Positions 20,937-62,210 of a stretch of DNA of 64,000 bases are shown here, in pieces. The stretch is taken from positions 17,802 through 81,801 of the forward strand of contig CALAXC010000153.1 of NCBI GenBank assembly GCA_937894775.1. The letters are read 5' to 3'. The stretch's first letter is position 1. Each line of letters starts with the position of its first letter. A program made the translations under genes and the position numbers. This DNA comes from an uncultured Clostridia bacterium. GTDB lineage: Bacteria; Bacillota; Clostridia; Oscillospirales; CAG-272. Under the pieces are notes generated by a model, which worked only from the letters and a program-made list of their open reading frames with translations, had not been told where the DNA came from and made no database searches.

Positions 20937-20965
20937 TTGAAAAAATATTTAATATATGATATAAT
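20937..20965 (+). promoter_or_regulatory. Near-consensus sigma-A promoter heading the 20.9-39.8 kb operon
   Basis: TTGAAA (20937-20942), a 17-nt spacer, then TATAAT (20960-20965) with an extended -10 TG at 20957-20958. The predicted TSS (~20972) excludes the track TTG start at 20969. Confidence 0.6.
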
Positions 20966-20998
20966 GTATTGGATAATGCTATTTTTAGGACGTTTAAT

Positions 20999-21844
20999 AT
21001 GCAATTAATAAAAAATGAAAGATTTGATGAGGAAAGAGCTTTTTATTCAAGCAAAGAAGTAAAGCTTATAGAATGTAGCTTTGACGGCATAGCCGACGGT
21101 GAAAGCGCTTTTAAAGAAAGCTCTGATATTGAGATAGAGGATTGTTTCTTTAATTTGAGATATCCGTTTTGGCACGATAAAAACATATTGATAAAAAATT
21201 CAAAAATGACTTCGCTCTGCAGGGCGGCAATTTGGTATTCTGACAGCATAAGTGTTCAAAACACAGATATGCACGGAATAAAAGCATTAAGAGAGTGCAA
21301 AAACGTTGAAATAATCAATAGCGATATAATATCTACCGAGTTTGGATGGCTTTCCGAAAATATTATCCTTGATTCAACAAGAGCGGAAGGCGAATATTTT
21401 ATGTTTATGTCAAAAAACATAAACGCAAGGGAATTGAGCTTTAAAGGAAAATATTCTTTTCAGTACATAGAGAATGCGGTTTTTGAAAATTGTGATATAG
21501 ACACTAAAGATGCTTTTTGGCACGCAAAAAACGTGCTTGTTAAAAATTGTCGGATAAACGGTGAATATCTTGCTTGGTATAGCGAGAATATCACTTTTGA
21601 AAATTGTATTATTTCAGGAACACAGCCTTTGTGCTATTGCAAGGGCTTGAAACTTATAAATTGCGAGATGAACGGTGCGGATCTCTCTTTCGAGCTTTCC
21701 GACATATATGCAACCCTTAATTCGTACGTTATAAGTGTTAAAAATCCGTTGTCAGGGTATATAGAGCTTCCGTCAGTCGGTGAGATTATTCTTGATAACG
21801 TAAATTCTGAATGTGAAATTTTTGTAACACAACACAATGATTGA
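20999..21844 (+). CDS. Beta-helix repeat protein (DUF3737-like)
   Basis: Starts at ATG 20999 (MQLIKNERF). Repeated ~22-aa units ending in 'I.N(S/C)' with W(H/Y) pairs (FWHDKNILIKNSKM, IWYSDSISVQNTDM, FWHAKNVLVKNCRI, AWYSENITFENCII). From memory this resembles DUF3737, a right-handed beta-helix. Confidence 0.55.
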   Translation: MQLIKNERFDEERAFYSSKEVKLIECSFDGIADGESAFKESSDIEIEDCFFNLRYPFWHDKNILIKNSKMTSLCRAAIWYSDSISVQNTDMHGIKALRECKNVEIINSDIISTEFGWLSENIILDSTRAEGEYFMFMSKNINARELSFKGKYSFQYIENAVFENCDIDTKDAFWHAKNVLVKNCRINGEYLAWYSENITFENCIISGTQPLCYCKGLKLINCEMNGADLSFELSDIYATLNSYVISVKNPLSGYIELPSVGEIILDNVNSECEIFVTQHND

Positions 21845-21861
21845 TTTTGCTTTAGGAGATA

Positions 21862-23556
21862 ATGAAGATGGTACTTAGTTTACTTTCAGTCGCAATACTT
21901 TTGATTGCGATATTTGAAATTATAATGGAAACGGTCAAGGCTGTTAATAAGGGCTTGAAAAAATCCCTTGTTACGTTAGCTTCAATTATGCTTTCTATAT
22001 TTTTGTCCTTGGTATTGACACAACCGGTGTCAAATCTTTTGGTAAACCCGATAGCAAATTTATTGAAAAAGCTTGTGAATCTTTCGGCGCTTGAGAATAC
22101 TGTTCCAAGCTTGCCGTTAGTGATTGGTGCTTATGCTGATGCATTGATATCACCGCTTATATTTTTGATATTATTCTTTTTGATCAGGGCGATAATCGCA
22201 ATCGTTGTTTTGATCGTTATGCGTTCGAGAGAAAAAAAGAAGATCGATACTAATAATTATGAAAACGAGGATGCTCCTGCGTTTAAGAAAAACCCCAAAG
22301 CCGCAAGCGGAGTAGTGGGATTTGTGTGCGGTATTTTGTTGATAACAACTTTTACAGCGCCTATTATGGGAACTCTTAAGGTCGCAGAAAAAACTTTTTC
22401 CGCAGTTAATAATAATTCCGATGTTTACGGAGCTAAGATCAATTCAAAAGCAGTTTCGGTTATCAAGCTTTTTTCAAAGGATATGATAGGAAACGCATTG
22501 TATTATTGCGGTGGAAACCTTATATACAAAGCAAGCGCTACGTCGATGCTTAACGATAATTATTTTCAGCTTGAAAATGAAGCCGTTCAAACGGTAAACA
22601 CGGCAGACGATCTTATGCTTGTTACGAGTATACTTGGAAATATAAATTCTTCAACAGAGGAGCAGAGAAACTCAATGAAGGTTCTCGGCAAGGAAATAAA
22701 TAAAGCAGAAACGCTTAAAACTGTTGCCGCGGATATAGTTCCGGAGCTCTCAAAAAATTGGCTTGACGGAAAACCTTACTTGGGTACTGATAAGCCTAAA
22801 TTCAATAAGATCTCGGAAAGCGTTTTTAATAAAATGCTTTATGTGTGTAAATCGAGTACTGTTGATACTGTAGGTGATGACCTTAATACTCTTTTGAATG
22901 TTTATATGATAGCATATGAGCATGATATGTTGGTTTCGGGAGATTATAAAACGGTAATTGAAACAGCCAGCAGAACCGGTGCTTTTGATCTCATAAGACA
23001 AGAACTGAGTAAAAACAGAAGAATGGCAGGTATTACTTTAGATATCGATACGATGTCGATACGTACAATAGCATCTGCAATTCAGTCCTTTAACTTGGAA
23101 AACTATGATATTCTTATGAATAACATAACTAATACGCTTAACGTTGCGCTCAAATATGAGGGCGAAGCAAGAAAGCAGTATATTACCGATCTTACAAGAC
23201 AGTATATTAATTCTTACGGAATCAATATTGGCGAGGCTGAAACTATTAAGTTGGCTGAAAAACTTAATGATGAAGTTATCGGCAATAGAAAGAGCGTGTC
23301 TATTGACGATGTTAGATCATTCTGGGATAAATATTCTGTGAAGAATAAGGATAATAATACTCAGGTACAGCAAACTCCCGTTATATCTGTACCCGATCAG
23401 ACGGTTGATGATACTGTTGAAGGAGAAACAGATTTGGACACAGAGAATGAAGGCGGAGAAGGTTATCCCGAAAATCCTGAGTCTTATGCGGATGGATATG
23501 TTGAGCCTGAAAACGGGCAGGAAAATATTGAAAACGAGTATAATAGCATCGCATAA
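21862..23556 (+). CDS. Polytopic membrane protein with ~390-aa soluble domain and acidic tail (N-terminal TM bundle weakly CvpA-like)
   Basis: 564 aa. About 5 hydrophobic segments in the first 180 aa. The C-terminal 60 aa is D/E/N/G-rich. Starts 17 nt after the preceding gene, with RBS AGGAG. Confidence 0.6.
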   Translation: MKMVLSLLSVAILLIAIFEIIMETVKAVNKGLKKSLVTLASIMLSIFLSLVLTQPVSNLLVNPIANLLKKLVNLSALENTVPSLPLVIGAYADALISPLIFLILFFLIRAIIAIVVLIVMRSREKKKIDTNNYENEDAPAFKKNPKAASGVVGFVCGILLITTFTAPIMGTLKVAEKTFSAVNNNSDVYGAKINSKAVSVIKLFSKDMIGNALYYCGGNLIYKASATSMLNDNYFQLENEAVQTVNTADDLMLVTSILGNINSSTEEQRNSMKVLGKEINKAETLKTVAADIVPELSKNWLDGKPYLGTDKPKFNKISESVFNKMLYVCKSSTVDTVGDDLNTLLNVYMIAYEHDMLVSGDYKTVIETASRTGAFDLIRQELSKNRRMAGITLDIDTMSIRTIASAIQSFNLENYDILMNNITNTLNVALKYEGEARKQYITDLTRQYINSYGINIGEAETIKLAEKLNDEVIGNRKSVSIDDVRSFWDKYSVKNKDNNTQVQQTPVISVPDQTVDDTVEGETDLDTENEGGEGYPENPESYADGYVEPENGQENIENEYNSIA

Positions 23557-23612
23557 TATTTTAAGCGTTGTAGACCCGAGTAAAAACTGTAAATGAAAAT
23601 GGCAGGTAAGAT

Positions 23613-24308
23613 ATGGAAATAATTATGGCTTATATAGCAAAGGGAATCGTACTTCTAATGAGTATGGTACTGTATGTATACCTCTTTTCAGCGGTAGTCC
23701 CTAAATTTATTATGAAGCTCAGATGCAAAGTAAATACGTGCGACAGAGGTATAAGAAAATATAAATATCCTGATGGAAGATGCGTTGTTTACGAACCTGA
23801 AATTTCTTTAAGAAAATATGTTGAAAGTTATGCACTTTACGTTCGTGACGGATATAAATACATTACTTGTAAGACAACAGAAAATGTAAAAGATATAAGA
23901 TACGAGGTCTATGCTTTTGATATAAACAATAAGCTTATAGACATTTTATCGGTACTTGAAACTGTGAATAACGGTTGCACACAGGAAGTTTCTATCCCCC
24001 CTGAAACATCGTATGTAAGATTGGTGCTCAGACGAGTTGATAATGAGTATTATTCAAGAAAGATAGTGGCAGAATACTCTGTTTTCAGTTATTGTTTGTG
24101 CGCTATAGTAGTTGCTGTAGCAACACTTGTAGAGTCTTTTATCGTTTATTTCTTGGCAAAAGATATTTTGATCAGCGGCTTAAGACTCAGAATGACTCTT
24201 ATAGGAGTCGGCGGTATGTTTTTTATGGCAATTTTGATATCTTTGATAGTAGCGGGACTTACTGTTCTTGCATATCGCAGAAACTGTAAAAAGGTGATAA
24301 ACAAATGA
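23613..24308 (+). CDS. Hypothetical membrane protein
   Basis: 231 aa: an N-terminal TM, a ~120-aa beta-rich domain, then 2-3 C-terminal TMs. Its stop overlaps the next start (ATGA at 24305). Confidence 0.55.
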   Translation: MEIIMAYIAKGIVLLMSMVLYVYLFSAVVPKFIMKLRCKVNTCDRGIRKYKYPDGRCVVYEPEISLRKYVESYALYVRDGYKYITCKTTENVKDIRYEVYAFDINNKLIDILSVLETVNNGCTQEVSIPPETSYVRLVLRRVDNEYYSRKIVAEYSVFSYCLCAIVVAVATLVESFIVYFLAKDILISGLRLRMTLIGVGGMFFMAILISLIVAGLTVLAYRRNCKKVINK

Positions 24309-24952
24309 AAAGAGATTTGCAAATTATATCGAAAGGTCTGTACGATAAACCCAATGAAGATTGTGCACTGATTGCAGCAAAACAGTATATTTTTGCAAGG
24401 CAAAAAGGAAGAAAGATCTTAATTGTAAGATTCGAAAACCTTTCTAACCATAGAATAGAAGATATGTCATTTTGGTTGGTTCAGTTGAATTCTGACGGTG
24501 TTGAGATATCGTCTAAAAAGATAACATTAAAAAGTATCGGCTGTGCACCAAGGGAAATTTTTTCTCCAAATAATTGTTTTTACGTAGATAATAAATGCGT
24601 GGATTTTGAGATCCGAATGATTTCTGTTACTTCGGGCGGCTTTGAATATTTATCAAAAAACGGAGAGGGATTTGTAAAATATCCTCTTGAGGAGAGCTGG
24701 TCATATGCTTCATCGCAAAGTGTTTCGGGATATAAATATTCTAAAATACAAAATAACAGAGTTAAATTTTCAAAAGCAATTTTGATATTGGCATTGTTTT
24801 TAATCGCTCTTGCGGTTATTTGGCCATTCTTTGCAAATACGTTGTGTCCCGCAATTGCAGATGTTCTGGATAGATTTTGGAAAATGGTTGCTGAGGATAC
24901 GAAGGAACTTTTCAGACGTATTGCAGAGTCATTCGAGAAGAAGAATGTTTAA
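24305..24952 (+). CDS. Hypothetical protein with C-terminal TM anchor
   Basis: 215 aa with a soluble ~155-aa domain, then the TM 'AILILALFLIALAVIWPFF'. AAGGTG RBS. Translationally coupled to the previous ORF. Confidence 0.55.
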   Translation: MKRDLQIISKGLYDKPNEDCALIAAKQYIFARQKGRKILIVRFENLSNHRIEDMSFWLVQLNSDGVEISSKKITLKSIGCAPREIFSPNNCFYVDNKCVDFEIRMISVTSGGFEYLSKNGEGFVKYPLEESWSYASSQSVSGYKYSKIQNNRVKFSKAILILALFLIALAVIWPFFANTLCPAIADVLDRFWKMVAEDTKELFRRIAESFEKKNV

Positions 24953-24972
24953 ATTATCAGTAGGAGAATGAT

Positions 24973-27900
24973 ATGTTAAAACATAAATTTATAGTTGATA
25001 AGCTTAGCGAAGCGCAAAAGATAACGCTTTTGTCTGACGTGAGAGTGCTTTCGACTGCGGAATATACTAAGTTTGGTATTCCAATGCTCAGTATTGAATC
25101 GATATACGGATATAAAACTGATGTTTATCCAAGTCCGATAAGTCTTGCGAATTCTTGGAATGAGAGAATAGTTGGCGAGGTCGCAAGTGATATCGCAGTT
25201 TCTATGTCCGCAGAACAAATAAATGTAGCGGGAATACTCAGCCCTATTCCAAAACTTAATATGACAGATAGAGCGATTTCGGAAGATCCGCTTCTTTCGG
25301 CAAAGATCTCATCTGCGTATATGGGCTCTATAGGAAAGACGGGAATAGCGGTAACACTTGATGATATTTTCTTTGATGAGCAGGATGTTTCTTGCTTGGA
25401 TCATACGCCAAACAGTAGATTTTTAAATGAATTTGTTTACAGAGCGGTATCTAATACAGTTGAAAATAAAAAATGTCATGCTGTAACGGTTGGAGCAGAT
25501 ATAGATATAAAAGGCTACGAAAATATAAACAGTGAGATCACCGAGAGAGTCGCAACTATCGGCGGTGAAAAATTCGTTTTGTGTAAGAATATCGCACCGG
25601 AAGATACGGTTATAAGAATCGTAAAGGGGCAGATATGCTTAGACGGCTGTGAGCCTGTTCTCAAAGCGGCTATCGATAGATATGCACGTTTGAAAGAGGG
25701 AATAAAGCGAGGCAGAGTTACGGTATGCGAGCTTGAAGCTGAGATAGAAAACGGAAGCGCTTTCCCACCTGAAAAGATAGATGAGGCGGTAGACAAGGTT
25801 ATAGATTTTGCTTTTGAAATGACAAATGCGAATAAAGGTAAGCTTGCTTCCTATACCCCTACTTCAACAGTGGTGAAAAATGCTGCTTATGAATCAACGG
25901 TCCTTTTGAAAAACTATAAAACAGTTTTGCCGTTAAAGCCGGGTACTCTTGTAACTTTGGCAGGAGATATATTGGTGAATTATAACGGAGAAGACGCGGA
26001 TTATTCGGATAAAGCAAATGAAGCTGCATATTATCTCAGAGGTCTTGGCTGTGCTTCTCAAGGATTTGTCCGTGCATATTCTATGGCAGAAGACAGAAGC
26101 GATAAGCTTTTTATGCAAATGGAAGGATCTGCGCTGAACACCGATACGGTAATTCTCTTTATGGGAACTAATCCCCAAAAAGAGAAGGCAATTACCAGAA
26201 CCGAGAATCTGTATCTCCCCGCAAATCAGCTTGCTGCCTTGGAGAAGCTTTATAAGATGGGTAAAAAGATAATCGCTGTAGTGTCAAGCGATTATGCAAT
26301 AGATGTTACTTTTGCAGACAAGGTTGACGCACTTTTGGTAGCTCCGTTGAATACAAAATATGGCGTTGAAGCGGTATTCGATATCATTACAGGCAGAATG
26401 GGCCCGGTAGGACGACTTGCGACAACTTGGTATAAAAATACAGATAGGGCAAATAAAAAACATAGATTTTATTGTTCAATGCCAAACTCAAAGGTCGGCA
26501 CTTATTTGGGTTACAGATATTATGATAAATCCGATTATGATGTGGGTTATCCTTTCGGATACGGATTGGCATTTTCAACCTTTGTTTATTCAAAGCTTTC
26601 GGTTCAGGGAACTAACGTTGTTTTCACCGTAAAGAATAAAGCTAAGGTTGCGGGAACCGAAGTAGTCCAAGTTTATTTAGGTATTAATAATTCAGCAATT
26701 CAACGACCTAAAAAGGAGCTTGTCGGATTTGAAAAGATATATCTTCAGCCGGGAGCTTCGACAACAGTTTCGATTCCTATGTCGAATATAGAAAGCTTTG
26801 ATCCCGAAAGTAAACGGTGGATTATGGAGCGTGGCGAATACACAGTATATGTAGGCTCTTCGGTTAAAGATATAAAGCTTACAGCGAAGGTGTCGCTTGG
26901 ACAGGATATTGTGAATTCTCCTGCGGAAGATCCGTCCGATTATTTACAGTCGGAAAGTAATATTATTTCAAACAGATACACATTGGAGGCAGATTATAAG
27001 CTTATGAAAAGGAATATTAGAAATATAGTATTTGGTATAGGCGCCCTTGTTTTGGCGGTGGCTATGTTTGTCTTCTCGATATTTTCGGGAAAGGTAAGTA
27101 TTTTCTTAAACGTTGTTGCGTCTATATTGGCTTTGGCGGGAGTGGTGTTCTTTATTTTGGAAGGTACTGACCGTAAAAAAGCGCATAACGAAGAAAGAAA
27201 CCGTGTAAATGAAGCGAATAAGGCTCATTTTGAAAATGCAACGGATATTGCAGATTTCTCTACAAATGCCGTATTTAGCGAGGAATTCGACAGAGTCGAG
27301 CAGAAGATATCTTTCACAAAAGATACGGCTCCCTCAAAGGCAGAAAGCTATCTTGCTTTTGTAAATGAGAGTCTTACATATGATGCAGCAATTTCTCAGT
27401 TTATTGCGTTTGCCGCTGCTAAAGGTTTTAAGTTTAATGAAAGCAACGCACGCGAGCTTTTTGCAGCTATGTCTGCATCAAGACTTATCATCACAAAGGG
27501 AATGTCTAATGACGTATTTGCCGAGCTTGTAAGAGTAGTAAGCGAATATTTTGGAACTCCTATGTTTGTGGATGCGGTTGATTATTCTTATGAAAATGAT
27601 AATTCCGCACTCTTTAAGGGGGTAGGTGCTGCAAAGCAGAGAACAAATCTCACCAATGCTATTTATGCGGCAATTGAAAGCTCCGATAAGGTTCATATTG
27701 CAGCGCTTACAGATGTTAATTTTGCAGATCTTTCAAAGTATTTTGTTCCGTTTGCAAGATATATTCGTAATCCACGTAATGCAAACATTATTTCTACGGT
27801 CGATCAGACAGGTGAAAAGACTCAGATCACGATGCCACAGAATATGTGGTTTATGCTTAATTTGAGAATGGGCGAGACCATGAGTAATATACCTGAATAT

Positions 27901-28350
27901 ATCACTGAGCTTGCTTCGGTTATAAAGGTGGATTATATAAGAACTGCTCCTACAATGCTTTATACGCAGATTGTTCCGTTTAGTTATTATCAGTTTGATT
28001 TCTTGCTTGATAAGGTGAAAACAAGATTTATTATTTCTGAGGATACTTGGAAGAAGTTTGACCGTTTTGAAGCTTTTGTAAACGGTGTTTCTCCATATGC
28101 TCTTGAAAATAGAGTATGTATAGCCGTTGAGAGATTTTTTGCAGTATTCTGTGCCGCAGGCGGAGATACGAATGAGGCGATCGACAGAGCTATCAGTGCA
28201 AGAATACTTTCTTCGGTGATTATAACGCTTAATAATGCCGAGGACAAGGAAAATAGAAATCTTACCGAAAAGCTTGAGATGATATTCGGCGAAGAAAACA
28301 TAGATGTTTGCCGAGCTTTCATCAGAGCGGCAGGATCAAATCTTATCTGA
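24973..28350 (+). CDS. Fusion protein: GH3-like domains (N-domain, alpha/beta sandwich, Fn3-like), a 2-TM hairpin, and a degenerate McrB-like AAA+ domain
   Basis: 1125 aa. GH3-type blocks: 'KLSEAQKITLLS', 'GIPMLS', 'ISEDPLL', 'STVLLKNYKTVLPL', 'GPVGRLATTWY', 'GYRYYDKSDYDVGYPFGYGLAFSTF', 'EVVQVYLG'. TMs at about nt 27024-27165. The C-terminal ~390 aa aligns colinearly with the neighbouring ATPases but has destroyed NTP motifs (see findings). Confidence 0.75.
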   Translation: MLKHKFIVDKLSEAQKITLLSDVRVLSTAEYTKFGIPMLSIESIYGYKTDVYPSPISLANSWNERIVGEVASDIAVSMSAEQINVAGILSPIPKLNMTDRAISEDPLLSAKISSAYMGSIGKTGIAVTLDDIFFDEQDVSCLDHTPNSRFLNEFVYRAVSNTVENKKCHAVTVGADIDIKGYENINSEITERVATIGGEKFVLCKNIAPEDTVIRIVKGQICLDGCEPVLKAAIDRYARLKEGIKRGRVTVCELEAEIENGSAFPPEKIDEAVDKVIDFAFEMTNANKGKLASYTPTSTVVKNAAYESTVLLKNYKTVLPLKPGTLVTLAGDILVNYNGEDADYSDKANEAAYYLRGLGCASQGFVRAYSMAEDRSDKLFMQMEGSALNTDTVILFMGTNPQKEKAITRTENLYLPANQLAALEKLYKMGKKIIAVVSSDYAIDVTFADKVDALLVAPLNTKYGVEAVFDIITGRMGPVGRLATTWYKNTDRANKKHRFYCSMPNSKVGTYLGYRYYDKSDYDVGYPFGYGLAFSTFVYSKLSVQGTNVVFTVKNKAKVAGTEVVQVYLGINNSAIQRPKKELVGFEKIYLQPGASTTVSIPMSNIESFDPESKRWIMERGEYTVYVGSSVKDIKLTAKVSLGQDIVNSPAEDPSDYLQSESNIISNRYTLEADYKLMKRNIRNIVFGIGALVLAVAMFVFSIFSGKVSIFLNVVASILALAGVVFFILEGTDRKKAHNEERNRVNEANKAHFENATDIADFSTNAVFSEEFDRVEQKISFTKDTAPSKAESYLAFVNESLTYDAAISQFIAFAAAKGFKFNESNARELFAAMSASRLIITKGMSNDVFAELVRVVSEYFGTPMFVDAVDYSYENDNSALFKGVGAAKQRTNLTNAIYAAIESSDKVHIAALTDVNFADLSKYFVPFARYIRNPRNANIISTVDQTGEKTQITMPQNMWFMLNLRMGETMSNIPEYITELASVIKVDYIRTAPTMLYTQIVPFSYYQFDFLLDKVKTRFIISEDTWKKFDRFEAFVNGVSPYALENRVCIAVERFFAVFCAAGGDTNEAIDRAISARILSSVIITLNNAEDKENRNLTEKLEMIFGEENIDVCRAFIRAAGSNLI

Positions 28351-28377
28351 AAATAACGGATTAAGGAGAACAAGTAA

Positions 28378-29703: not shown

Positions 29704-29736
29704 TTTTTAAGATAAATTTTACAAAGGAAAATTTGT

Positions 29737-31428: not shown

Positions 31429-31444
31429 TGCTTGGGTGGAATAG

Positions 31445-32815
31445 ATGACGAAAAATGTTAAAAGAAATATAAAAAGAGTTATTTTACTTATCGTTTCTCT
31501 TGCGCTTGAGGGAATACTCGCATTTATGCTTATAGGCGGTATTGCAAATCACGGGCTTGCAGAATCTAAAGTAATAACGCTTATAATAATTCTTATGCTT
31601 ATGATACCGCTTGCTTTGTTGGCACTTTTGTTTGTTGTTTCTTTTAGAAAAAAGCAACAAGCAAAAGTATCCAAAAGGCAAGAGACCGATAAAAAAACGG
31701 GTAAGAAGAAAAAGAAAAACGAAGATAACGGTGATACCGAGCGTTTTTGTATGTTGAGTGCGATCGACAGAAGAAGAAACAGCTATGGACACGTGAAGTA
31801 CGCAACAAACGTAACGCTTGAAGATTTCTGTGAGAATTTCAGGAATTATGCGGCATACAGACACGGATTATACTATGATATAGAAGATATAAGAAGATTC
31901 ATAGCAGGAATGTCAGTGTCACATATGCTTATATTACAGGGTATGTCGGGAACAGGTAAAACCTCGTTGGCACACGCGATAGGATCATTTGTTGATAATA
32001 GCTCAACGATAATTCCCGTGCAGCCAATGTGGAAGGAAAGAACCGACCTTATAGGTTATTATAACGAATTTACAAGAAGATTTAACGAGACATTATTGCT
32101 TACAAAGATGTATGAGGCAAATTATAGCAAAGACGTCTATGTAACGGTTCTCGATGAAATGAATATTGCAAGAGTAGAGTATTATTTTGCTGAATTTTTG
32201 TCTTTGCTCGAGCTTCCGAATCCTGAGGAAAGATACCTCGATGTAGTATCGGACAAATGGGAAAACGATCCCACTCAGCTCAAAGACGGAAGAATAAAGC
32301 TTCCTACAAATATGTGGTTTGTGGGAACGGCAAATAATGACGACTCAACATTCCTTATATCGGATAAGGTTTATGACCGAGCAATGATACTTGACCTCGA
32401 TCAGAAAACCGAAAGATTCGTAGCGCCGCCAACCGAAAAGATGATAATATCTGCAGAACAGTTCGACGCACTTGTAGTATCTGCGCAGAAGGAATATGAG
32501 ATAAGCAGCCGAAACAAGAAGAGACTTGAAGCGTTCGATGAATATCTTATAGCGCATTTCCACGTAACGTTCGGAAACCGAATTATGAAGCAGATATTGA
32601 CATATATCCCCGTATATATAGCATGCGGCGGAGAAGAGCTTTTTGCGCTTGACGATATACTTTCAAAGAAGGTAATAAGAAAGCTCGAATCACAGAATCC
32701 TATATACTTCAAGAATGCGGCAGACGGATTGATCGCGTATATGGACGATCTTTTTGGCGCAGAAAATATGACTCTCTGCAAGGAGCATATAAGAAGAATT
32801 TTGAGAAATGCTTAA
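31445..32815 (+). CDS. Membrane-anchored McrB-like AAA+ NTPase, copy B
   Basis: 456 aa with a 2-TM hairpin N-terminus and a Lys-rich linker. From 'TERFCMLSAIDRR' to the C-terminus the protein is identical to copy A (359 aa). Confidence 0.75.
   Translation: MTKNVKRNIKRVILLIVSLALEGILAFMLIGGIANHGLAESKVITLIIILMLMIPLALLALLFVVSFRKKQQAKVSKRQETDKKTGKKKKKNEDNGDTERFCMLSAIDRRRNSYGHVKYATNVTLEDFCENFRNYAAYRHGLYYDIEDIRRFIAGMSVSHMLILQGMSGTGKTSLAHAIGSFVDNSSTIIPVQPMWKERTDLIGYYNEFTRRFNETLLLTKMYEANYSKDVYVTVLDEMNIARVEYYFAEFLSLLELPNPEERYLDVVSDKWENDPTQLKDGRIKLPTNMWFVGTANNDDSTFLISDKVYDRAMILDLDQKTERFVAPPTEKMIISAEQFDALVVSAQKEYEISSRNKKRLEAFDEYLIAHFHVTFGNRIMKQILTYIPVYIACGGEELFALDDILSKKVIRKLESQNPIYFKNAADGLIAYMDDLFGAENMTLCKEHIRRILRNA
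31736..32815 (+). repeat. 1080-bp direct repeat, copy 2 (ATPase core)
   Basis: See copy 1. Confidence 0.9.
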
Positions 32816-32842
32816 AAAAATAAAGATTTGAGATTATAGATT

Positions 32843-34738
32843 ATGTTTAAAGATAGTAAATATGTAAAGTTAATATGCATAGTCTTGGTTTTTTCTGCTT
32901 TGGCGTTGGCACTTTCGATGGGGATTTTAGCTATCAGCGCTTTGCGGAATGAAACTTTTGCTGATCCGCTTGACGGTTATCAGGAAAACCTCGAGAAAGA
33001 AACGGTGACCCTTCCGCCTCCTGTTCCCCCTGACGGACCCGATCCTGACGACGATCCGGACGGAGATAATACAAGCCCGTATCAAGTGTATTCCGATCAA
33101 GCTGTAGATGCTCTCTATTTGAGGGGGGAGGCTTTTGGAAATTATAACGGAAAAGGATGGGATGAGGCAGTTCCGTATACAAATTTGATAGATGATAAAT
33201 ATCCTGCAACCTATCTTGGAAGTTTGATGATAGAAGAGTGGAGCCGAGCTTGGGGCATGTCTCCGATAGCTCTTTCTATAAAGCCGAATGATGCTGAAAT
33301 GATCATACCTTCCTATACGGCAACATCGGAATATGTTGCAGATCTTATGGGAACAACGGATTATAAAGAAGAGTATTTAATTCCGGAAGATGATGTTACG
33401 GCAAATCCAAAGAGCTCAGAAATTTACCGTATGCATTATTATAATTACACAAATGTCAGCAAGAAAAAGGAAACTCCTACCACTTATGCACTCTATGAAA
33501 GGGTATACCGCGACTTTGTATATGACCATTATCTTTATGTAGATGATACAACAAAGTCCTATATGCTTGATATTATAGATAAGCAAAAGTTTGATTTTTA
33601 TGATCAGAATGTTGCTCAGAATATTTCGGATTATGTTTCCGGATTAGGCGAATATCTCATTACTTATGATCAAGCCCTTGATCAAGAGGAAAATATGGTT
33701 ATTGCCTTTATTGAAAAATATAAAGCAGGAACGTGTAAGCATTTTGCAAGTACTGCCACACTTATTTTCAGATCAATGGGAATTCCCGCAAGATATGTTA
33801 CGGGATATATGACAGCAACAGAAGCGGGAGAATGGGTGCAGCTCGATAATTTCAATTCACACGCTTGGGTAGAAATATATGTTGACGGCTTTGGCTGGAA
33901 AACGGTAGAGGTAACACCCGCACAGCAAAAAGATCCTATAGAGATAAAGCCTGTTGATGTTAAGAAAAAATTTGACGGAACTCCGATTTTCCCTGAATAT
34001 AAGATAGAAGGCTTTGAAGAGTACGAAAAGCTTGGATATACTTATGAGGTGGTTATAAGCGGAGAACGTACCGAACCGGGTGTGTCTGAAAGTATTATTG
34101 AAGATATAAAGATATTCGATTCCAATAAAACTGAAGTAACAGATAATTTTCTATTTGAAAAAAAGCCGGGAAAAATTATTGTTCTTGTTAGCGGAGTTGT
34201 TTTGAGGAGCGAGTCGATATCTCAGGTATATGACGGAATTCCGAGGACTTCGGATCTTTCAAAATGCAGTATAGATTTTGAAGATGGTGCAAAGCTTTTG
34301 GAAGGACATACTATCAGAATGGAAGCGAGATTACTTGAGACTAAGATAGGTGTTCATTCGCATGCATTTGATGTTATTGTGGAAGACAGTGAAGGTAATA
34401 ATGTTACGGATGTGTATCTTTTCTCGTATGATTTAGGTAAATATGAAATATCTCCGATATCTATAACCATTAAAGCGGGAAGCGCTGAACAAGAATATCT
34501 TCCTGGAAAGATACTTACTTGTGATCAGTATGAAATAACATCAGGAAAGCTTATGGAAGGTGATTATATTCCCGATGATATAGTTATTACCAAAGGAGAG
34601 CAAAAGGTACCGGGAAGAAGTCCTAACACAATAGATCGTAGTAAAATAGTTATTTTAAATTCCGAGGGTGAAGATGTTTCGTCTAACTATGTAATTCGTA
34701 CAGAGGTTGGAGAGTTACGTCTTTATGAAAGTGAATAA
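32843..34738 (+). CDS. N-terminally anchored transglutaminase-core protein with C-terminal YDG-type repeats
   Basis: 631 aa. Signal-anchor 'LICIVLVFSALALALSMGILAI' and a Pro/Asp-rich linker. TGase core 'GTCKHFASTATLIFRSMGIPARYVTGY...HAWVEIYVDGFGWKTVEVTP'. The C-terminal ~260 aa holds repeats containing 'YDG' and 'EGH'. Confidence 0.75.
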   Translation: MFKDSKYVKLICIVLVFSALALALSMGILAISALRNETFADPLDGYQENLEKETVTLPPPVPPDGPDPDDDPDGDNTSPYQVYSDQAVDALYLRGEAFGNYNGKGWDEAVPYTNLIDDKYPATYLGSLMIEEWSRAWGMSPIALSIKPNDAEMIIPSYTATSEYVADLMGTTDYKEEYLIPEDDVTANPKSSEIYRMHYYNYTNVSKKKETPTTYALYERVYRDFVYDHYLYVDDTTKSYMLDIIDKQKFDFYDQNVAQNISDYVSGLGEYLITYDQALDQEENMVIAFIEKYKAGTCKHFASTATLIFRSMGIPARYVTGYMTATEAGEWVQLDNFNSHAWVEIYVDGFGWKTVEVTPAQQKDPIEIKPVDVKKKFDGTPIFPEYKIEGFEEYEKLGYTYEVVISGERTEPGVSESIIEDIKIFDSNKTEVTDNFLFEKKPGKIIVLVSGVVLRSESISQVYDGIPRTSDLSKCSIDFEDGAKLLEGHTIRMEARLLETKIGVHSHAFDVIVEDSEGNNVTDVYLFSYDLGKYEISPISITIKAGSAEQEYLPGKILTCDQYEITSGKLMEGDYIPDDIVITKGEQKVPGRSPNTIDRSKIVILNSEGEDVSSNYVIRTEVGELRLYESE

Positions 34739-34756
34739 TAAGTAAAGGGTGGTATA

Positions 34757-37700
34757 ATGTTATACGATAGCTACCATAAAAAAATATCGAAGGTCGTTGA
34801 TGTTTTACGCAAGGTATTTAAGCACATAGTCCTGATCAGCATTGTTTTAGGACTTTTGCTTGCGTTTCTCATTACTTTTATGGTTACAAAGGGAATGATT
34901 ATTGACGATAAAAATGTGTCTAATAAATTCGCTGTAACTTACGGAGAAGACCTTCCATTGAAGACGAGCGCTATGTTCGCTTCACATAAATATCAATATT
35001 CCGAAAACGGAAGAAAATGGAGCGATGCTTTTCCGTCAGAACCGGGAACATACCGGGTCAGGGCAGTTGCTAAAGGAATATTCGGAAATGAGAGATACGG
35101 AAAGATCTATACTTTTGTTTTAAAAGCAAAGGAAATTGATGTTTCTGTAGTCGAAGATGAAATTATATATGGAGAACTTCCAACGGTTGAAGCTAAGCTT
35201 TCTTATGAAGATACTATCAGCTGTGACGGTTTTGTTTATGAAGACCGCTTTTCGGCAAGCACTAAGGTAACTCCGAATGCAGAGGACATTACGATTCTTA
35301 ATAAAGACGGTGAAGATGTTACCTCTTCTTATGAGATAAACGTTGAAAGTACCGACATCAACGTGCTTCAAAGAGAAATTCTGGTTACTGTATCCGATCA
35401 GTCAATGATATATAATGATGTAAAGTTTAGTTATGACGGATACGAATTAAGTAACGGAACTTTAGCCGACGGTGATACTATTCAGGCGGTATTTGATAAG
35501 TATCTTATAGATGTAGGTGAGATCGAGAATACCCCCCAGCTTAAGGTCGTTACATCAGACGGTTTTGATATTTCAATGCATTATTCTATCCAAACACAGA
35601 TAGGTAAGCTTAAAGTTGACTACCGTCCGTTGATAATTAAAACGCCAAGTGCTGAAAAGGTATATGATGCAAACGCTCTTTCAAATTCCGAGTACGAGAT
35701 AGTAGGGGAATACGGTCTTGTTGAAGGACATACGATGATCTGTATTTCCAACACTTCTATAACGGACGTTGATGAGGTTGAGAACGTTCTTGATTTTGAG
35801 ATCAAGAATGCGGCAGGAGAAGATAAGACTCCTAACTATTCTTTCTTCTATGAAAGAGGAATGCTTAAAGTAACCGAAAGACCTCTTAATGTTTCGTTTG
35901 TGAGTGGAACTTGGATGTATGATAACAAGTGGCATAAGGGTGAAATAAAGCTTGAAGGCCTTTGCGAAGGACATAAAGCGACTTATGATATACCGAGTAT
36001 AATCGATACAGGTAAGATAGAAAACTCTACCGAGATAACCGAGATTTATGATGCTCACGGAAAAGATGTTTTCTTGAATTATGATATCATTTACGGTGAT
36101 TTCGGTACTCTTGAAGTTACAAAACGTCCGATAACTATTACTACTGAGAGTCAGACTTTGACTTATGACGGTGTTATCAGAGTTTTTGATAAGTATGAAA
36201 TTACATCTGAAATAAAGCTTGCTGACGGTGAAGAGCTTCAGCTTACCTTTAACGAGTTCTACAAGGCAGGAACTTATGACAATAATATTGTTTCTGCTAT
36301 GATAAACTACAGCCGAACAGGTACAGGCGTTCCGGATGAAAACGGTTGGTATCAGGTAGGCAGCAGTGGAGTTGCCGATGCTGCTCAAAACTATGAGATA
36401 ACTGAGGTAATAGGAAAGATAATTATTAATAAGTGTCCGATTACTTTGCGTCCTGTTGATATAGCGCATGTGTATGACGGTACGTTGATTGTTCCTACTG
36501 AATTCGATATCGTTTCGGGAGAGCTTCCTCCAAGTCATACTATATATCCCGAGTATATAGGTTCACTTACCGATGCGGGAGAAATAGATACGGATATAGA
36601 TCTTACAAAGACTATAGTTAAAGTGCTTCGTGATGACGGTTCGGAAGAAGATGCTACCGAGAACTTTGAGATCACAGTTCAAAAGGGTAAGATCACTATC
36701 AGTAAAAGACAGATCACCGTTAGAACCGAAACAGTTGAAAAGATATACGATGGAACTCCGTTATCAAGTAATAATTGGGAGATCGTAAGCGAAACACAGC
36801 TTGTTGAAACTCATACGCTTAATCTTGAATGTAATGTTTCAAGAATTTATCCAGGTGAAAGTGATAATCTTGTAGATCTTGATTCTGTCACGATCGTTGA
36901 TGAAAATGAAAATGACGTTCTTAAGAATTATGAGATAACTTACGAGTACGGTAAGCTTATAGTACATAAGCGACCGATAACTATTGTTGCTTCAAGTGCG
37001 AGAAAGACCTATGATGGAACACCTCTTGTTTCTACAGAATATTCTATCTTGGATGCTGATTTAGAGGATTACGGATTATTGGAAGGTCATACCCTCAAGG
37101 CAACGACAAGCGGTTCTATAACCAACAAGGGTGAGACCTCAAATAAGATCGATATCGATAAAGTGAGAATACGTAATGCTTCAAATAAAAACGAAACAGA
37201 GTATTATGAAATTACTTGTTCTGACGGAACACTTACTATTGATCCGATAATTGTCAATATCACTACTTCGTCTGTAAATAAAATCTATGACGGTACCTCT
37301 ATAAATCCTAAGATCGATACCGTAGTCGATTCGGATATCGAAGAGAAAATCATTGCGGGACACACTTATTCGATCACAGTAGCGGATAAGGAGCTTATAA
37401 ATGTAAAAGATTCTCCGCTGGAAAATGAAGCGATTTTGGTAGTTTACGATGAAAAAGGTGCAGATATGACTGCACTTGGAAATTATGAGGTAAACGGAAC
37501 TTGGGGAAGTATTATTATTCTTCCCAGAGTTATTAAAATACTTCCTAAACCATCAGTAACGAGTAAGGTTTATGACGGAAATCCGTTGACTTGTACCGAT
37601 TATGAGGATATTTCAAATGCTGAATTAAACGAAGGACTCCTCAGCAATCATTTGCTGGAGCAAATAGAATTTAATTCTCAAACAGATGCAACTGATTTCT

Positions 37701-39784
37701 CGGTTTCGATAGAAGTTATAGATGCTATTGTTCGTGATGAGTATGGTGAAGACGTTACGGAAAATTATAAGTTTGAAACGACGGGTATCAGCTATGAGAT
37801 ATCGAAGATAGTTATTTCTATAACATCGCACAGTGATAAAAAGTTATTTGACGGAACAAGATTGACAAACGGCAATTATGATCTTACGGGAAAAATTGTT
37901 TCAGGTCAAAATCTTACAGTTAACATAACAGGTTATCAGTTAGAAGAGGGTAAATCAAACAATACAGTAGAAAGCTTTAATATAACTTATAATGGTGAAG
38001 ATGTTACACACAATTATGATGTAACGGTAATTGAAGGTACTCTTGAGGTTTATAAAGAAGTTGTTGCAAAGGTAACTTCTACAAAAGATGGATATATTTA
38101 TCTTAAGCAAAAGGCTTATGGAGATTATAGCGGTCGAGGCTTTTATGATGCTTACTCCTCAAATTATTATTTGACGAGAAACGGATATAATCATAATTAT
38201 ATGCTGTGGATGTCATTGAATCTTGCTCAAAATAACTTCACAACCGATACGCTTACTGTAAAAGATGCTAAAACTTATATGCTTCCGTACTATTATACCT
38301 TAGGCGGAAACTATGACTATCCTTCTTATGATAGTGAGGAATATACTTCAAATCTGACTGATTATACAGTTCCGTATTATGATTATGATTTTTATTTAAG
38401 AGGCACAGAGCCCATTGAATATCGCGTTTACCAGAATAATTATAGATCATATACGAATTGGGTAAAGAGTGAATATACGTATATATCATCTTCTTTGAAG
38501 AGAAAGTTACTTAATGCGGTAGCAAATAATGGCTTTGAAGATATGGCAACCGAAGATGCAATAAATGCAGTTGCAAGATATATGCGCTTATTTGGCAATT
38601 ATAATCTTGAGTATGATAAAACACTCGATTCGAGGAGTGATGTAGTAACGGCATTCCTTACAGAATATAAGGAGGGTGTTTGCACCCATTATGCGATGAC
38701 AGCAACAATGCTTTACCGTGCTTTGGGTATTCCCGCAAGATACGTTGAAGGTTATTTGGTAGAAACAAAAGCAAATGAATCTACCGATGTTAAGGATGCG
38801 CACGCGTGGGTTGAGGTATTTGTTGAAGGATGTGGCTGGGTACAGATCGAGGTAACGCCGACAGGTCCTAATCAAGAAGCTATAGATATACTTGTAAAGA
38901 CTAAGGATGAGTCTGTACAGTATGACGGTGATGAGCATTTTGCACCTGAATTCCTTGAGGTAGTAAAACCTTCTGATGAGGTTAAAAAGCTTATTGATTC
39001 GGGATATACTGTAAAGGCTATAGAAACAGTAGGATCTTTGACTTATCCAGGAAAGATAAGAACTTCAGTTCTTCCTCAAAACGTTAGAATATATGATGAA
39101 GATGGGAAAGATGTAACCTATAAGTTTAATATTGAAACTGTTAGCGATGAAGATGAAAAAGGTTTGCTTACAGTAGAGCCAATTTTGATTGATATTTATT
39201 TACATTCTTATTCTAAACCGTATGATGGAAAACCGATAGATTATCAAAATCCTGATTATTCTATAATTGATCCTGACTTTGAGACGTTGGTAGCTTCGGG
39301 AGAACTTGTTCTTTCAATAACATTCAGTTGTCCTGAGATAAACATCTATACTATTAGCTCAAGCGATGTTTTTGAATCTGGATATTTCACTTTTACTATT
39401 ACTGATAAAGAAGGTAATGATTGCAGTAAGATATATGCTTTGCGTATCGTGAATAAATATGCTGAGCAAGATGAAGATCCATTTGTATATACAGTAATAG
39501 AAATATCTAAGAGGGAGATCGAGATAACAGCTGTTAGTGAAGAATGTCACTATAATGAGGGAGATATCTTAAGTAATCCTAATTATTTTATAACAACAGG
39601 ATCATTGGTTGAAGGTCATTATGAAGAAGTTACAATAACGTCTGAGCTTGATCATGTGGGTACTACTTTGAATGAAATAGAAACCTGTGTTATATATGAT
39701 GCAAACGGTGTGGATGTTACTAAAAATTATGCTATAGCACGTATTTCGGGAATTCTTTCCTTTGTAACAGAAAATGAATTTTAA
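34757..39784 (+). CDS. Giant N-terminally anchored surface protein: at least 10 YDG-type (MBG-like) repeats plus a transglutaminase core
   Basis: 1675 aa. TM 'IVLISIVLGLLLAFLITFMV'. Repeated '(K/H)(I/V)YDG(T/N)P(L/I)...(V/L)EGHT' units (KIYDGTPL, KTYDGTPL, KVYDGNPL, KIYDGTSI, LTYDGVIR, HVYDGTLI, KPYDGKPI and others). TGase core 'GVCTHYAMTATMLYRALGIPARYVEGY...HAWVEVFVEGCGWVQIEVTP' at about nt 38675-38860. Confidence 0.8.
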   Translation: MLYDSYHKKISKVVDVLRKVFKHIVLISIVLGLLLAFLITFMVTKGMIIDDKNVSNKFAVTYGEDLPLKTSAMFASHKYQYSENGRKWSDAFPSEPGTYRVRAVAKGIFGNERYGKIYTFVLKAKEIDVSVVEDEIIYGELPTVEAKLSYEDTISCDGFVYEDRFSASTKVTPNAEDITILNKDGEDVTSSYEINVESTDINVLQREILVTVSDQSMIYNDVKFSYDGYELSNGTLADGDTIQAVFDKYLIDVGEIENTPQLKVVTSDGFDISMHYSIQTQIGKLKVDYRPLIIKTPSAEKVYDANALSNSEYEIVGEYGLVEGHTMICISNTSITDVDEVENVLDFEIKNAAGEDKTPNYSFFYERGMLKVTERPLNVSFVSGTWMYDNKWHKGEIKLEGLCEGHKATYDIPSIIDTGKIENSTEITEIYDAHGKDVFLNYDIIYGDFGTLEVTKRPITITTESQTLTYDGVIRVFDKYEITSEIKLADGEELQLTFNEFYKAGTYDNNIVSAMINYSRTGTGVPDENGWYQVGSSGVADAAQNYEITEVIGKIIINKCPITLRPVDIAHVYDGTLIVPTEFDIVSGELPPSHTIYPEYIGSLTDAGEIDTDIDLTKTIVKVLRDDGSEEDATENFEITVQKGKITISKRQITVRTETVEKIYDGTPLSSNNWEIVSETQLVETHTLNLECNVSRIYPGESDNLVDLDSVTIVDENENDVLKNYEITYEYGKLIVHKRPITIVASSARKTYDGTPLVSTEYSILDADLEDYGLLEGHTLKATTSGSITNKGETSNKIDIDKVRIRNASNKNETEYYEITCSDGTLTIDPIIVNITTSSVNKIYDGTSINPKIDTVVDSDIEEKIIAGHTYSITVADKELINVKDSPLENEAILVVYDEKGADMTALGNYEVNGTWGSIIILPRVIKILPKPSVTSKVYDGNPLTCTDYEDISNAELNEGLLSNHLLEQIEFNSQTDATDFSVSIEVIDAIVRDEYGEDVTENYKFETTGISYEISKIVISITSHSDKKLFDGTRLTNGNYDLTGKIVSGQNLTVNITGYQLEEGKSNNTVESFNITYNGEDVTHNYDVTVIEGTLEVYKEVVAKVTSTKDGYIYLKQKAYGDYSGRGFYDAYSSNYYLTRNGYNHNYMLWMSLNLAQNNFTTDTLTVKDAKTYMLPYYYTLGGNYDYPSYDSEEYTSNLTDYTVPYYDYDFYLRGTEPIEYRVYQNNYRSYTNWVKSEYTYISSSLKRKLLNAVANNGFEDMATEDAINAVARYMRLFGNYNLEYDKTLDSRSDVVTAFLTEYKEGVCTHYAMTATMLYRALGIPARYVEGYLVETKANESTDVKDAHAWVEVFVEGCGWVQIEVTPTGPNQEAIDILVKTKDESVQYDGDEHFAPEFLEVVKPSDEVKKLIDSGYTVKAIETVGSLTYPGKIRTSVLPQNVRIYDEDGKDVTYKFNIETVSDEDEKGLLTVEPILIDIYLHSYSKPYDGKPIDYQNPDYSIIDPDFETLVASGELVLSITFSCPEINIYTISSSDVFESGYFTFTITDKEGNDCSKIYALRIVNKYAEQDEDPFVYTVIEISKREIEITAVSEECHYNEGDILSNPNYFITTGSLVEGHYEEVTITSELDHVGTTLNEIETCVIYDANGVDVTKNYAIARISGILSFVTENEF

Positions 39785-39791
39785 AATAAAA

Positions 39792-39827
39792 AGCTATCAC
39801 AAATGAAAATTTGTGATAGCTTTTTTG
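39792..39827. terminator. Bidirectional hairpin terminator closing the operon
   Basis: AGCTATCACAAAT-gaaa-ATTTGTGATAGCT perfect 13-bp stem, flanked by an A-run upstream and a T6 run downstream. It sits between convergent genes. Confidence 0.8.
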
Positions 39828-44089: not shown

Positions 44090-44118
44090 GATTTTTTTCC
44101 TCTTTGCTTTTAGAGCGT

Positions 44119-61940: not shown

Positions 61941-62210
61941 GGCCATACTAGTCGGGGAATTAGCGGAGCCCTGTACCTGAAATCCGCTACAGCAGGGGTG
62001 AATTCCATTTCTGAGGGTTAGATCAAAGCAGTCTGACCTGCGCCTTCTGCGTTGAAGAGTGGGTCTTGCGCAATCGGGAGTTGTGAACCATGTCAGGTGG
62101 GGAACCAAGCAGCATTAAGCAATTAACTCGATGTGCCGCGAGGGTGCCTGCTCTGAGCAGGAGATGCGGATATCGTGTGGCGACGAGATTCGATTTAATG
62201 GTGTATGGTC
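61941..62210 (+). ncRNA. ffs: Signal recognition particle RNA, large Bacillus type (~270 nt)
   Basis: Contains 'GGAGCCCTGTACCTGAAATCCGCTACAGCAGGGGTGAATTCC' (Alu-like domain) and domain-IV 'CATGTCAGGTGGGGAACCAAGCAGCATTAAG ... GTGCCGCGAGGGTGCCTG'. The termini GGCCATAC / GTATGGTC pair. Located directly upstream of dnaX, as in Bacillus. Ends are approximate. Confidence 0.8.

Follow-up and report, generated by a model that had tools for sequence, protein, structure and literature searches.

What does a McrBC-type motor do when it appears to be anchored in the membrane, next to giant surface proteins and with no recognizable nuclease for a partner? Almost all that is understood of such motors concerns restriction devices in which they are coupled to a nuclease. 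The question is raised by a cassette of nine genes, O2 to O10, in a 64,000-nucleotide (nt) stretch of DNA from an uncultured Clostridia bacterium (contig CALAXC010000153.1, positions 17,802 to 81,801; referred to here as the window). The cassette is part of a run of ten same-strand open reading frames (ORFs; O1 to O10, + strand, 20999/20969 to 39784), separated by gaps of, in order, 17, 56, -4, 20, 27, 33, 16, 27 and 18 nt, and both the positions and the spacing given in an initial annotation of this DNA were borne out. Most of the ORF starts have, just 5' to them, a purine-rich sequence (AGG/GGAG-like) resembling a ribosome-binding site. At roughly even confidence, we favor the reading that O2 to O10 encode a chromosomally fixed membrane complex of gut Clostridia, built around a McrBC-like GTPase exapted from restriction or defense ancestors, which would serve as a motor or switch for giant surface proteins.

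That these nine genes belong together is indicated by their relatives; conservation of the gene neighborhood had been named beforehand as the test. A profile scan covering one genome per species returned 366 loci, and the best 80 of the 366 were inspected. All 80 come from gut or faecal Clostridia metagenome-assembled genomes (MAGs), assigned to the Oscillospiraceae, Christensenellaceae, Ca. Scatosoma, Pumilibacteraceae and "Eubacteriales". About 30 loci are long enough to display the gene order, and they have it as O2-O3-O4-O5-O6-O7-O8-O9-O10, down to approximately 40% O7 identity; the genes flanking the cassette differ between genomes. Identity to the window protein is 54 to 75% for the ATPase, 39 to 50% for O7, 24 to 38% for O5 and 23 to 37% for O2, O9 and O10. 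Divergence is thus much faster in the surface and membrane parts than in the ATPase, as expected if the former are exposed. Homologs of the ATPase number in the thousands. No viral relatives were found among the 2.9 million viral contigs of IMG/VR; one marginal match of 24% identity in the phage and viral collections was treated as chance. A single MAG, JAZRGJ01, contains two of the loci, with O7 homologs 51% identical to each other on contigs of 47.5% and 41.8% GC; it possibly harbors two systems or, given the GC difference, reflects bin contamination.

At the center of the cassette are two ATPases. O6 (ATPase A; 28378 to 29703, +) has an uncharged N-terminal tail, one transmembrane (TM) helix, an acidic linker and an NxD-type McrB-like core at residues 83 to 441. 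O8 (ATPase B; 31445 to 32815, +) has a basic N-terminal tail, a TM hairpin, a basic linker and a core identical to that of O6. Both score above the Pfam threshold for AAA_5, and the only PDB sequence that the core matches is Escherichia coli McrB; the core also reaches the NCBIfam McrB model at an expectation value (E) of 3e-3, far below the cutoff of that model. In the McrB alignment, GMSGTGKT and LDEMN fall on GPPGVGKT and IDEIN, and the signature TANNDDS aligns gap-free to NTAD in HMMER, so that Walker A, Walker B and the signature are all accounted for and the description of O6 and O8 as TM-anchored McrB-like NTPases stands. Across the ATPase family, gut and plasmid members together, GxSGTGKT, DExN and N-x-D-[D/E] are invariant; in the core itself the invariant residues are N200 and D202, followed by D or E. 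This NxD-[D/E] variant identifies the NxD branch of the McrB GTPases, which includes CoCoNuT and CoCoPALM (Bell et al., eLife 2024, PMC11090510), and by this signature we place O6 and O8 in the NxD-type McrB GTPase subfamily. Neither protein has a detectable N-terminal DNA-binding or specificity domain; in that position are the single TM helix (A) or TM hairpin (B) and the low-complexity linkers. Proteins 92% identical to O6 bear the Pfam accession PF27867.1, and part of the ATPase may already have a family of its own in a more recent version of Pfam.

Between the two ATPase genes lies O7 (29737 to 31428, +), for which the initial annotation had proposed a nuclease-less, McrC-N-like coiled-coil protein. 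The full-length protein has no Pfam match, because the coiled coil dominates the scoring. Taken alone, however, the N-terminal domain (residues 1 to 320) matches PF09823, DUF2357, at E = 4e-6, with 26.6 bits against a gathering threshold of 23.3 bits. Moreover, a profile of O7 aligns with that of the DUF2357-nuclease partners encoded on plasmids (see below) at an hhalign probability of 97.2% (E = 2.8e-11; O7 residues 59 to 259), and the alignment takes in the conserved RQFI...PIEKV...HLA-HS and YENR motifs. The domain, of the McrC N-terminal type, extends from residue 1 to about 320 and its family comprises 1,236 clusters at 50% identity. It is followed by a coiled coil of about 240 residues and a conserved, basic C-terminal helix. 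Residues 321 to 563 are 54 to 57% E, K, Q, R and L and matched only coiled-coil families and proteins; no PD-(D/E)xK nuclease was found in them. Indeed, Pfam, NCBIfam and PADLOC scans detected no nuclease domain in any of the ten ORFs, in agreement with the initial annotation. (A crude heptad score failed to separate the O7 tail from the N-terminal domain and was not used as evidence.) The AlphaFold2 (AF2) model of the O7 N-terminal domain has a predicted local distance difference test score (pLDDT) of 81.7, with the conserved segment 71 to 130 disordered or of low confidence. We regard O7, on the strength of these profile matches, as a true DUF2357 (McrC-N) homolog in which the nuclease appears to have been replaced by a coiled coil.

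The genes for O6 and O8 end in a direct repeat of 1,080 bp, not flagged in the initial annotation, which codes for the GTPase core and is 100% identical between its two copies (28624 to 29703 and 31736 to 32815, both +). It begins in the linker ahead of the core and stops exactly at the stop codon. This arrangement is a property of the family. In a sample of 20 genomes with both ATPase genes on one contig, 19 have A and B cores that agree with each other at 94 to 100% identity, even at third codon positions, but in comparisons between genomes the nearest core reaches no more than 70 to 90%. The homogenized tract always starts 1,080 to 1,200 nt upstream of the stop codon and ends 0 to 5 nt after it. 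The A anchor (uncharged tail, one TM helix) and the B anchor (basic tail, TM hairpin) are distinct, and each is conserved across the 19 genomes. Because the anchors are distinct yet conserved and the cores are near-identical within genomes, the duplication must be old, with the cores continually homogenized by gene conversion. We conclude from these comparisons that the two ATPase cores have undergone what appears to be long-lasting concerted evolution throughout the family. Among prokaryotes, concerted evolution of in-operon paralogs over long periods is described as rare (PMC6053082, PMC4632066).

A third McrB-like domain is found in O5 (24973 to 28350, +), which consists of a pseudo-GH3 region (residues 1 to about 650), a TM hairpin (about 685 to 730) and a pseudo-McrB-like domain (about 800 to 1125), the fusion that had been read from the sequence at the outset. 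In Pfam, O5 has GH3_C and Fn3-like matches and a sub-threshold match to the GH3 N-terminal domain; no signal peptide is present. The best PDB match of the GH3 region is a GH3 beta-glucosidase (7ms2; E = 2.5e-48). The SDW nucleophile motif of 7ms2 stands opposite IVKGQ in O5, i.e., opposite non-acidic residues, and in 25 homologs no column of the nucleophile stretch is Asp or Glu in 75% or more of the sequences; the SEDP motif of the region is invariant. The GH3 domain looks catalytically dead, a feature missed when it was first called GH3-like. The C-terminal domain is 24% identical to O6 (E = 6e-18), and Walker A, Walker B and the signature motif are missing in 25 of 25 homologs, for which reason it is a conserved pseudo-NTPase and not a recent pseudogene. 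We predict that O5, being doubly dead (pseudo-GH3 plus pseudo-NTPase), is a scaffold subunit.

The last two genes encode the surface giants. O9 (32843 to 34738, +) has an N-terminal signal-anchor, a transglutaminase-like core predicted to be extracytoplasmic and three YDG repeat units; O10 (34757 to 39784, +) has an N-terminal signal-anchor, at least 12 YDG (MBG-like) units and a transglutaminase-like core. The units are about 90 residues long and carry the YDG motif, and both proteins have an N-in/C-out topology. Pfam finds Transglut_core in each (E = 3e-19 in O9, 1.5e-21 in O10) and, in addition, AgI_II_C2 in O10. The anchors, the cores and the repeats uphold the original description of the pair. 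A G-x-C...HAW...[E/D]-x-T motif is kept in O9, O10 and 22 of the 26 homologs scanned; the catalytic Cys and His are conserved in nearly all homologs, and the third residue is mostly Glu. The transglutaminase/papain-like thiol cores are predicted to be catalytically intact. The cassette looks divided, with scaffold and motor on the cytoplasmic side and the catalytically competent parts outside.

O2, O3 and O4 are membrane proteins by TM prediction, as initially proposed, and none could be assigned to a family. O2 (21862 to 23556, +), the first conserved gene, has four TM helices, an all-helical domain of about 330 residues and a disordered acidic tail. It is fast-evolving, with only 35 detectable homologs; its Pfam match to CvpA/Colicin_V is weak (E = 3e-3), and its AF2 model is all-helical (pLDDT 76.8). 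O3 (23613 to 24308, +) has a first TM helix, a predicted cytoplasmic domain of about 130 residues and two C-terminal TM helices, and O4 (24305 to 24952, +) has a predicted cytoplasmic N-terminal domain of about 155 residues and one TM helix. Giants of 1,341 to 1,762 residues occupy the place of O4 in Christensenella-like genomes (L064:881-5290, L065:1-5289, L072:317-5296, L076:339-5195 and L049:1189-5214), in which an O4-type N-terminal domain and TM helix are followed by 1,200 to 1,600 residues of external BspA-type leucine-rich repeats (LRRs; LRR_5, E down to 5e-227). O4 aligns to residues 1 to 175 of these proteins, with the TM helix at about 156 to 174, and some of them have Cys-rich C-terminal motifs. 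The LRR array is predicted to be a further adhesin-like array outside the cell.

Where the motor came from is suggested by its relatives outside the gut lineages. The O6 core matches the PADLOC model PDC-M26A at E = 1.5e-45, over profile positions 311 to 430, approximately, of 724. A plasmid tblastn search with the ATPase core returned 285 records, with 27 to 40% identity among the 15 matches listed, from hosts that include Klebsiella, Bacillus, cyanobacteria, Deinococcus, beta-proteobacteria and lactic acid bacteria. Six plasmid contexts share a layout of hypothetical protein, ATPase (650 to 810 residues) and a partner of about 600 to 700 residues, with the ATPase and partner frames overlapping in five. 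Three of the six partners are annotated as DUF2357, two as "nuclease domain-containing" and one as hypothetical; the Bacillus pseudomycoides partner has both DUF2357 and PDDEXK_7 in Pfam. Two of the plasmid ATPases were scanned against PADLOC and are PDC-M26A-like. Several of the modules adjoin insertion sequence (IS) elements or a methyltransferase. Because of the DUF2357 homology, the NxD signature and these nuclease-bearing plasmid relatives, we interpret O6, O7 and O8 as a derived McrBC-type module. The PDC-M26A-like, nuclease-bearing and mobile relatives, which the initial annotation missed, fix the apparent ancestry of the ATPase. One nuclease-bearing relative of the module is on the Lactococcus lactis plasmid p275A, between ISS1-type IS6 elements, and another on a Companilactobacillus futsaii plasmid, both plasmids being of dairy or food lactic acid bacteria. 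A place between ISS1-type IS6 elements is a classic setting of phage-resistance cargo.

The first of the ten ORFs, O1 (20999 to 21844, +), encodes a cytoplasmic right-handed beta-helix protein (Pfam DUF3737, E = 3e-105). It had been counted as a member of the system; the beta-helix assignment is correct, but the membership is not. In none of the related loci compared is an O1-type gene found upstream of O2, and because O1 is not conserved with O2 to O10 it falls outside the conserved cassette, though within the promoter-terminator bracket, where by its position it would be co-transcribed with them. The predicted promoter, a sigma-70-type site at 20937 to 20965 (+) with TTGAAA, a 17-nt spacer, TATAAT and an extended -10 TG, matches 11 of 12 consensus positions, in keeping with its initial description as near-consensus, and is the top-scoring + strand site of the region. 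The predicted intrinsic terminator is also present, but its stem is stronger than first noted: 17 pairs at 39788 to 39825 (+) followed by a T-run, instead of 13 bp at 39792 to 39827. Taken together, sites of the promoter-like and terminator-like kinds are no more frequent than in shuffled sequence, and only the two bracketing sites stand out. Two identical pairs of internal promoter-like sites (9 to 10 of 12 matches; 29485 to 29512 with 32597 to 32624, and 28957 to 28984 with 32069 to 32096) are 3,112 bp apart because they lie inside the duplicated ATPase cores, and they are no evidence of internal promoters. A 285-residue antisense ORF within O10 (35681 to 36538, -) shows no sign of being a gene and probably arises merely because the coding sequence is so rich in repeats.

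The flanks are housekeeping, with nusG, rplA, rny and rnhA upstream and genes for a GNAT protein, a MutS-domain protein, glnS and gltX downstream. ARAGORN found no tRNA gene in the window. The claim that integrases and transposases are absent holds for the 20 ORFs, of the cassette and its flanks, that were covered by a Pfam scan reaching about 4 kb upstream and 8 kb downstream of the cassette. The glnS-like and gltX-like genes, which encode class I Glx-type aminoacyl-tRNA synthetases, are in tandem at 42431 to 45807 (-). The bacterial large signal recognition particle RNA (RF01854; 168 bits; 61943 to 62208, +) is the sole above-threshold Rfam family in the window.

How might a membrane complex around an exapted GTPase work? 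In the McrB hexamer, the N-terminal part of McrC inserts and stimulates GTP hydrolysis (PMC11090510). By analogy, A and B protomers, possibly together with the O5 pseudo-subunit, would form one mixed, membrane-proximal ring. The identical cores would make every ring interface and every contact with O7 interchangeable, and the distinct anchors would allow docking to different membrane partners, namely, O2 to O4 and the N-terminal anchors of O9 and O10. The O7 segment 71 to 130 would become ordered inside the ring and trigger GTP hydrolysis, with the coiled coil acting as a stalk or dimerizer. GTP-driven work or switching, transmitted through the anchors and O2 to O4, would then bring about the assembly, positioning, activation or turnover of the surface enzymes and adhesins. 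The cassette, so understood, would not be a nuclease-based restriction system. A bolder form of the proposal, in which the cassette is a new transmembrane mechanochemical machine, with a McrBC-derived GTPase ring held at the inner face of the membrane by two alternative anchors and a pseudo-enzyme scaffold, passing work or a signal through the membrane to the giant adhesin-enzymes outside, and exapted for a non-defense role, perpetual gene conversion keeping the cores of its two subunits identical, seems to us possible but tentative. The chance that the cassette works in a manner different in kind from restriction is, in our view, a reasonable minority one.

Several observations weigh against this proposal. 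The match of the core to McrB is weak (E = 1.3e-3 with the single sequence, 1.7e-3 with the profile). Foldseek comparison of the O7 N-terminal domain model with the PDB found no McrC (best E = 0.5; the DUF2357-homologous segment is partly of low confidence), and the plasmid DUF2357 profile had no McrC match among PDB sequences. Since no structural match was found, the connection of O7 to McrC, and hence the ring-insertion step, rests on the DUF2357 sequence homology. The membrane proteins provide no functional clue: Foldseek retrieved nothing from the PDB with the O2 model, O3 has no family match in the domain or PADLOC scans, similarity between O3 and O4 is undetectable and their paralogy unsupported, and O2 to O4 have no PADLOC match even at E up to 1. 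Nor is the large cassette obligatory for the O7/ATPase pair, because at least one divergent locus has the pair alone (L087:5085-8118). There, a gene 34% identical to O7 precedes a B-type-anchored ATPase gene without O2 to O6 upstream; the pair is preceded, on the other strand, by a major facilitator superfamily transporter gene, and on its downstream side the contig is too short to show whether a transglutaminase gene follows. The O7-like gene and the B-type ATPase appear to be the minimal core. Furthermore, we know of no way in which a McrC-plugged McrB ring acts on membrane proteins. Finally, the nearest ATPase relatives are in defense-type contexts, which leaves room for a role in conflict.

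Such a role is the substance of an alternative that we consider rather unlikely, namely, that the cassette is a membrane-sited anti-phage or conflict system in which the variable surface giants (transglutaminase/MBG and LRR) are sensors or decoys for damage to the envelope or adsorption of phage, the signal goes to the membrane-tethered McrB-like ring with its coiled-coil partner, and an O2-like membrane protein or the protease-like cores, rather than a nuclease, execute. Its logic would be similar to that of Zorya, whose motor in the membrane bears a long coiled-coil tail on the cytoplasmic side. The match of the ATPase core to a PADLOC candidate (PDC-M26A, E about 1e-45) favors it, as does the nature of the nearest annotated relatives, plasmid modules of an ATPase with a DUF2357/nuclease-type partner, several of them beside IS elements or a methyltransferase. 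The fast divergence of the surface components also fits, and nuclease-less coiled-coil McrC homologs are known in CoCoNuT systems (PMC11090510). However, those homologs are reported always to be paired with another nuclease (PMC11090510), and in the ten ORFs no nuclease, HEPN domain or other recognized effector was found. Besides the ATPase core, no cassette component matches a PADLOC model, even though the O7 N-terminal domain and the O5 C-terminal domain, like O2 to O4, were rescanned at E up to 1; the IMG/VR viral contigs hold no relatives. Moreover, defense systems are usually patchy and island-borne, whereas this nine-gene order is common to Oscillospiraceae- and Christensenellaceae-labelled lineages and, in the window, is flanked by housekeeping genes, with no mobile-element gene among those scanned. 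The cassette could instead serve in maturation or as a chaperone, in the manner of MoxR-adaptor-transglutaminase modules. The ring would then do no mechanical work on the surface proteins but would serve the membrane transglutaminases a single time, in their assembly or insertion or as a switch gated by nucleotide, as has been proposed for MoxR-DUF58-transglutaminase clusters. The same logic is seen in the PFNA cluster (PMC8430577), the transglutaminase cores are intact by sequence, and the dead GH3 and AAA domains suggest scaffolding over catalysis. We nevertheless judge this improbable: the ATPase is of the McrB type, not MoxR, there is no DUF58 or vWA protein among the ten ORFs, and two anchors with identical cores plus a 240-residue coiled coil seem excessive for a one-time factor. 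Since the MoxR triad offers no established function to argue from, the analogy explains little.

The least credible explanation, to which we assign almost no weight, is that there is no system at all: a McrBC remnant would have come to lie by chance beside surface-protein genes, and/or the duplicated ATPase would be an assembly artifact. The exact proteins of the window occur on a public NCBI/ENA contig of 97 kb, so that a metagenome assembly is its most probable source, and SPAdes-type repeat resolution can place one consensus in both positions of a repeat. In addition, two contigs of one species, L001 and L002, share one sequence as far as the ATPase stop codon (position 11329 in both), whereupon L002 continues into O7 and L001 into O9, skipping O7 and O8 exactly at the repeat. 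That L001 lacks these two genes means either that the repeat mediated a deletion or that the assembly took a shortcut through it; as a distinct single-ATPase architecture L001 was rejected, its identity to L002 up to the stop codon amounting to a jump through the repeat. Chance is hard to reconcile with a nine-gene order that recurs in about 30 assemblies made independently, in different studies and with different assemblers, or with two anchor types each conserved in 19 genomes. As for the identity of the cores, in several assemblies the two copies are resolved as differing at a few positions (94 to 99.8% identity). MEGAHIT contigs are not repeat-resolved, and of 44 short MEGAHIT contigs, 34 begin in the 3' end of the core, 34 finish in its 5' end and 26 do both, with A/B overlaps that are 95.6 to 100% identical, often for exactly the k-mer length. 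The resolved differences and the breaks inside the cores argue against an artifactual origin of the identity. A practical consequence is that the 1.1-kb exact repeat systematically breaks short-read assemblies at this locus and can yield false "single-ATPase" contigs.

If the membrane complex around an exapted GTPase is real, then a widespread, vertically kept, nuclease-free and membrane-anchored derivative would represent the McrBC motor re-used in cell-envelope biology. It would offer a handle on how uncultured gut Clostridia build or control giant adhesins and enzymes on the surface that faces host and phage; the clades concerned are the abundant uncultured gut Oscillospiraceae, Christensenellaceae and their relatives. 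Homogenization of the domain-coding part only, in many species, suggests a link between the interchangeability of ring subunits and concerted evolution. The component families are known already, as is an NxD McrB branch with nuclease-less coiled-coil McrC homologs. In contrast, PADLOC, the McrBC census paper with its supplements and the searched full-text literature (an incomplete library) contain no description of this cassette and no described system with its neighbors, a finding of which would have refuted the initial view of it as a candidate undescribed system. Undescribed in the same sources are the duplicated GTPase with its predicted TM anchors, the putative pseudo-GH3/pseudo-NTPase scaffold, the transglutaminase/MBG/LRR giants, the apparent absence of any nuclease and the proposed concerted evolution of the cores. 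Literature searches found no publication on PDC-M26.

Compared with the systems that are known, the cassette shares with McrBC an AAA+ core with Walker A, a DExN Walker B and an N-x(-x)-D signature, and, in O6 and O7, the order of ATPase and then a partner with a DUF2357/McrC N-terminal domain. It differs in that TM anchors replace the DNA-binding N-terminal domain and a coiled coil replaces the PD-(D/E)xK nuclease, and in having two ATPase paralogs plus a dead third copy. Also unlike McrBC, it is embedded in a nine-gene membrane/surface operon that is chromosomal and syntenic across families rather than patchy. The PDC-M26/plasmid modules have the ATPase subfamily closest to O6 and O8, and their DUF2357 partner is homologous to the O7 N-terminal domain. 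However, their ATPases have a soluble N-terminal region where O6 and O8 have a TM anchor, and they occur in a mobile context (IS elements, conjugative plasmids) without GH3, transglutaminase or LRR neighbors. A comparison drawn in the initial annotation, with MoxR-DUF58-transglutaminase triads, is fair as a functional analogy but does not extend to homology at the level of the adaptor. The bifidobacterial PFNA operon, in common with Bat-like operons, combines an AAA+ ATPase, an adaptor, a TM-anchored transglutaminase-like enzyme and a surface adhesin (PMC8430577), as does the cassette. Here, however, the ATPase is of the McrB type, membrane-anchored and duplicated, the adaptor is a DUF2357-coiled coil protein, and neither a DUF58/vWA domain nor a kinase was detected in the ten ORFs. 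With respect to the repeat, the duplicated mtrA of methanogens (PMC4632066) and a survey of such cases (PMC6053082) likewise concern in-operon paralogs that are closer within a genome than to their orthologs. In contrast to those cases, only a sharply bounded domain-coding tract, from linker to stop codon (1,080 to 1,200 nt), is homogenized here, the 5' anchor-coding parts remain distinct, and the direct repeats flank the gene of a presumably essential partner, O7.

Further parallels are CoCoNuT and CoCoPALM (PMC11090510), which have the NxD-[D/E] signature and, as here, a coiled coil on an McrC homolog that may lack a nuclease. CoCoNuTs differ in always having a HEPN or other nuclease nearby and a coiled coil on the GTPase (PMC11090510); neither was found here, O6 and O8 having no coiled-coil family match. 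Transglutaminase and GH3 domains go unmentioned in that paper and its supplements. Two further CoCoPALM traits were not seen in any of the ten ORFs, there being no FtsB/DivIC match at E up to 0.01 and no signal-peptidase family. CoCoPALM nonetheless resembles the cassette in its TM-containing fusion on the GTPase and its proposed link to surface structures (PMC11090510), and of the features sketched for it the coiled coil on the McrC homolog is present in O7 and TM anchors are present in O6 and O8. Kinship with CoCoPALM at the level of the clade, compared by that sketch, is possible, and clades related to those already described are to be treated by Bell et al. in work that they announce (PMC11090510).

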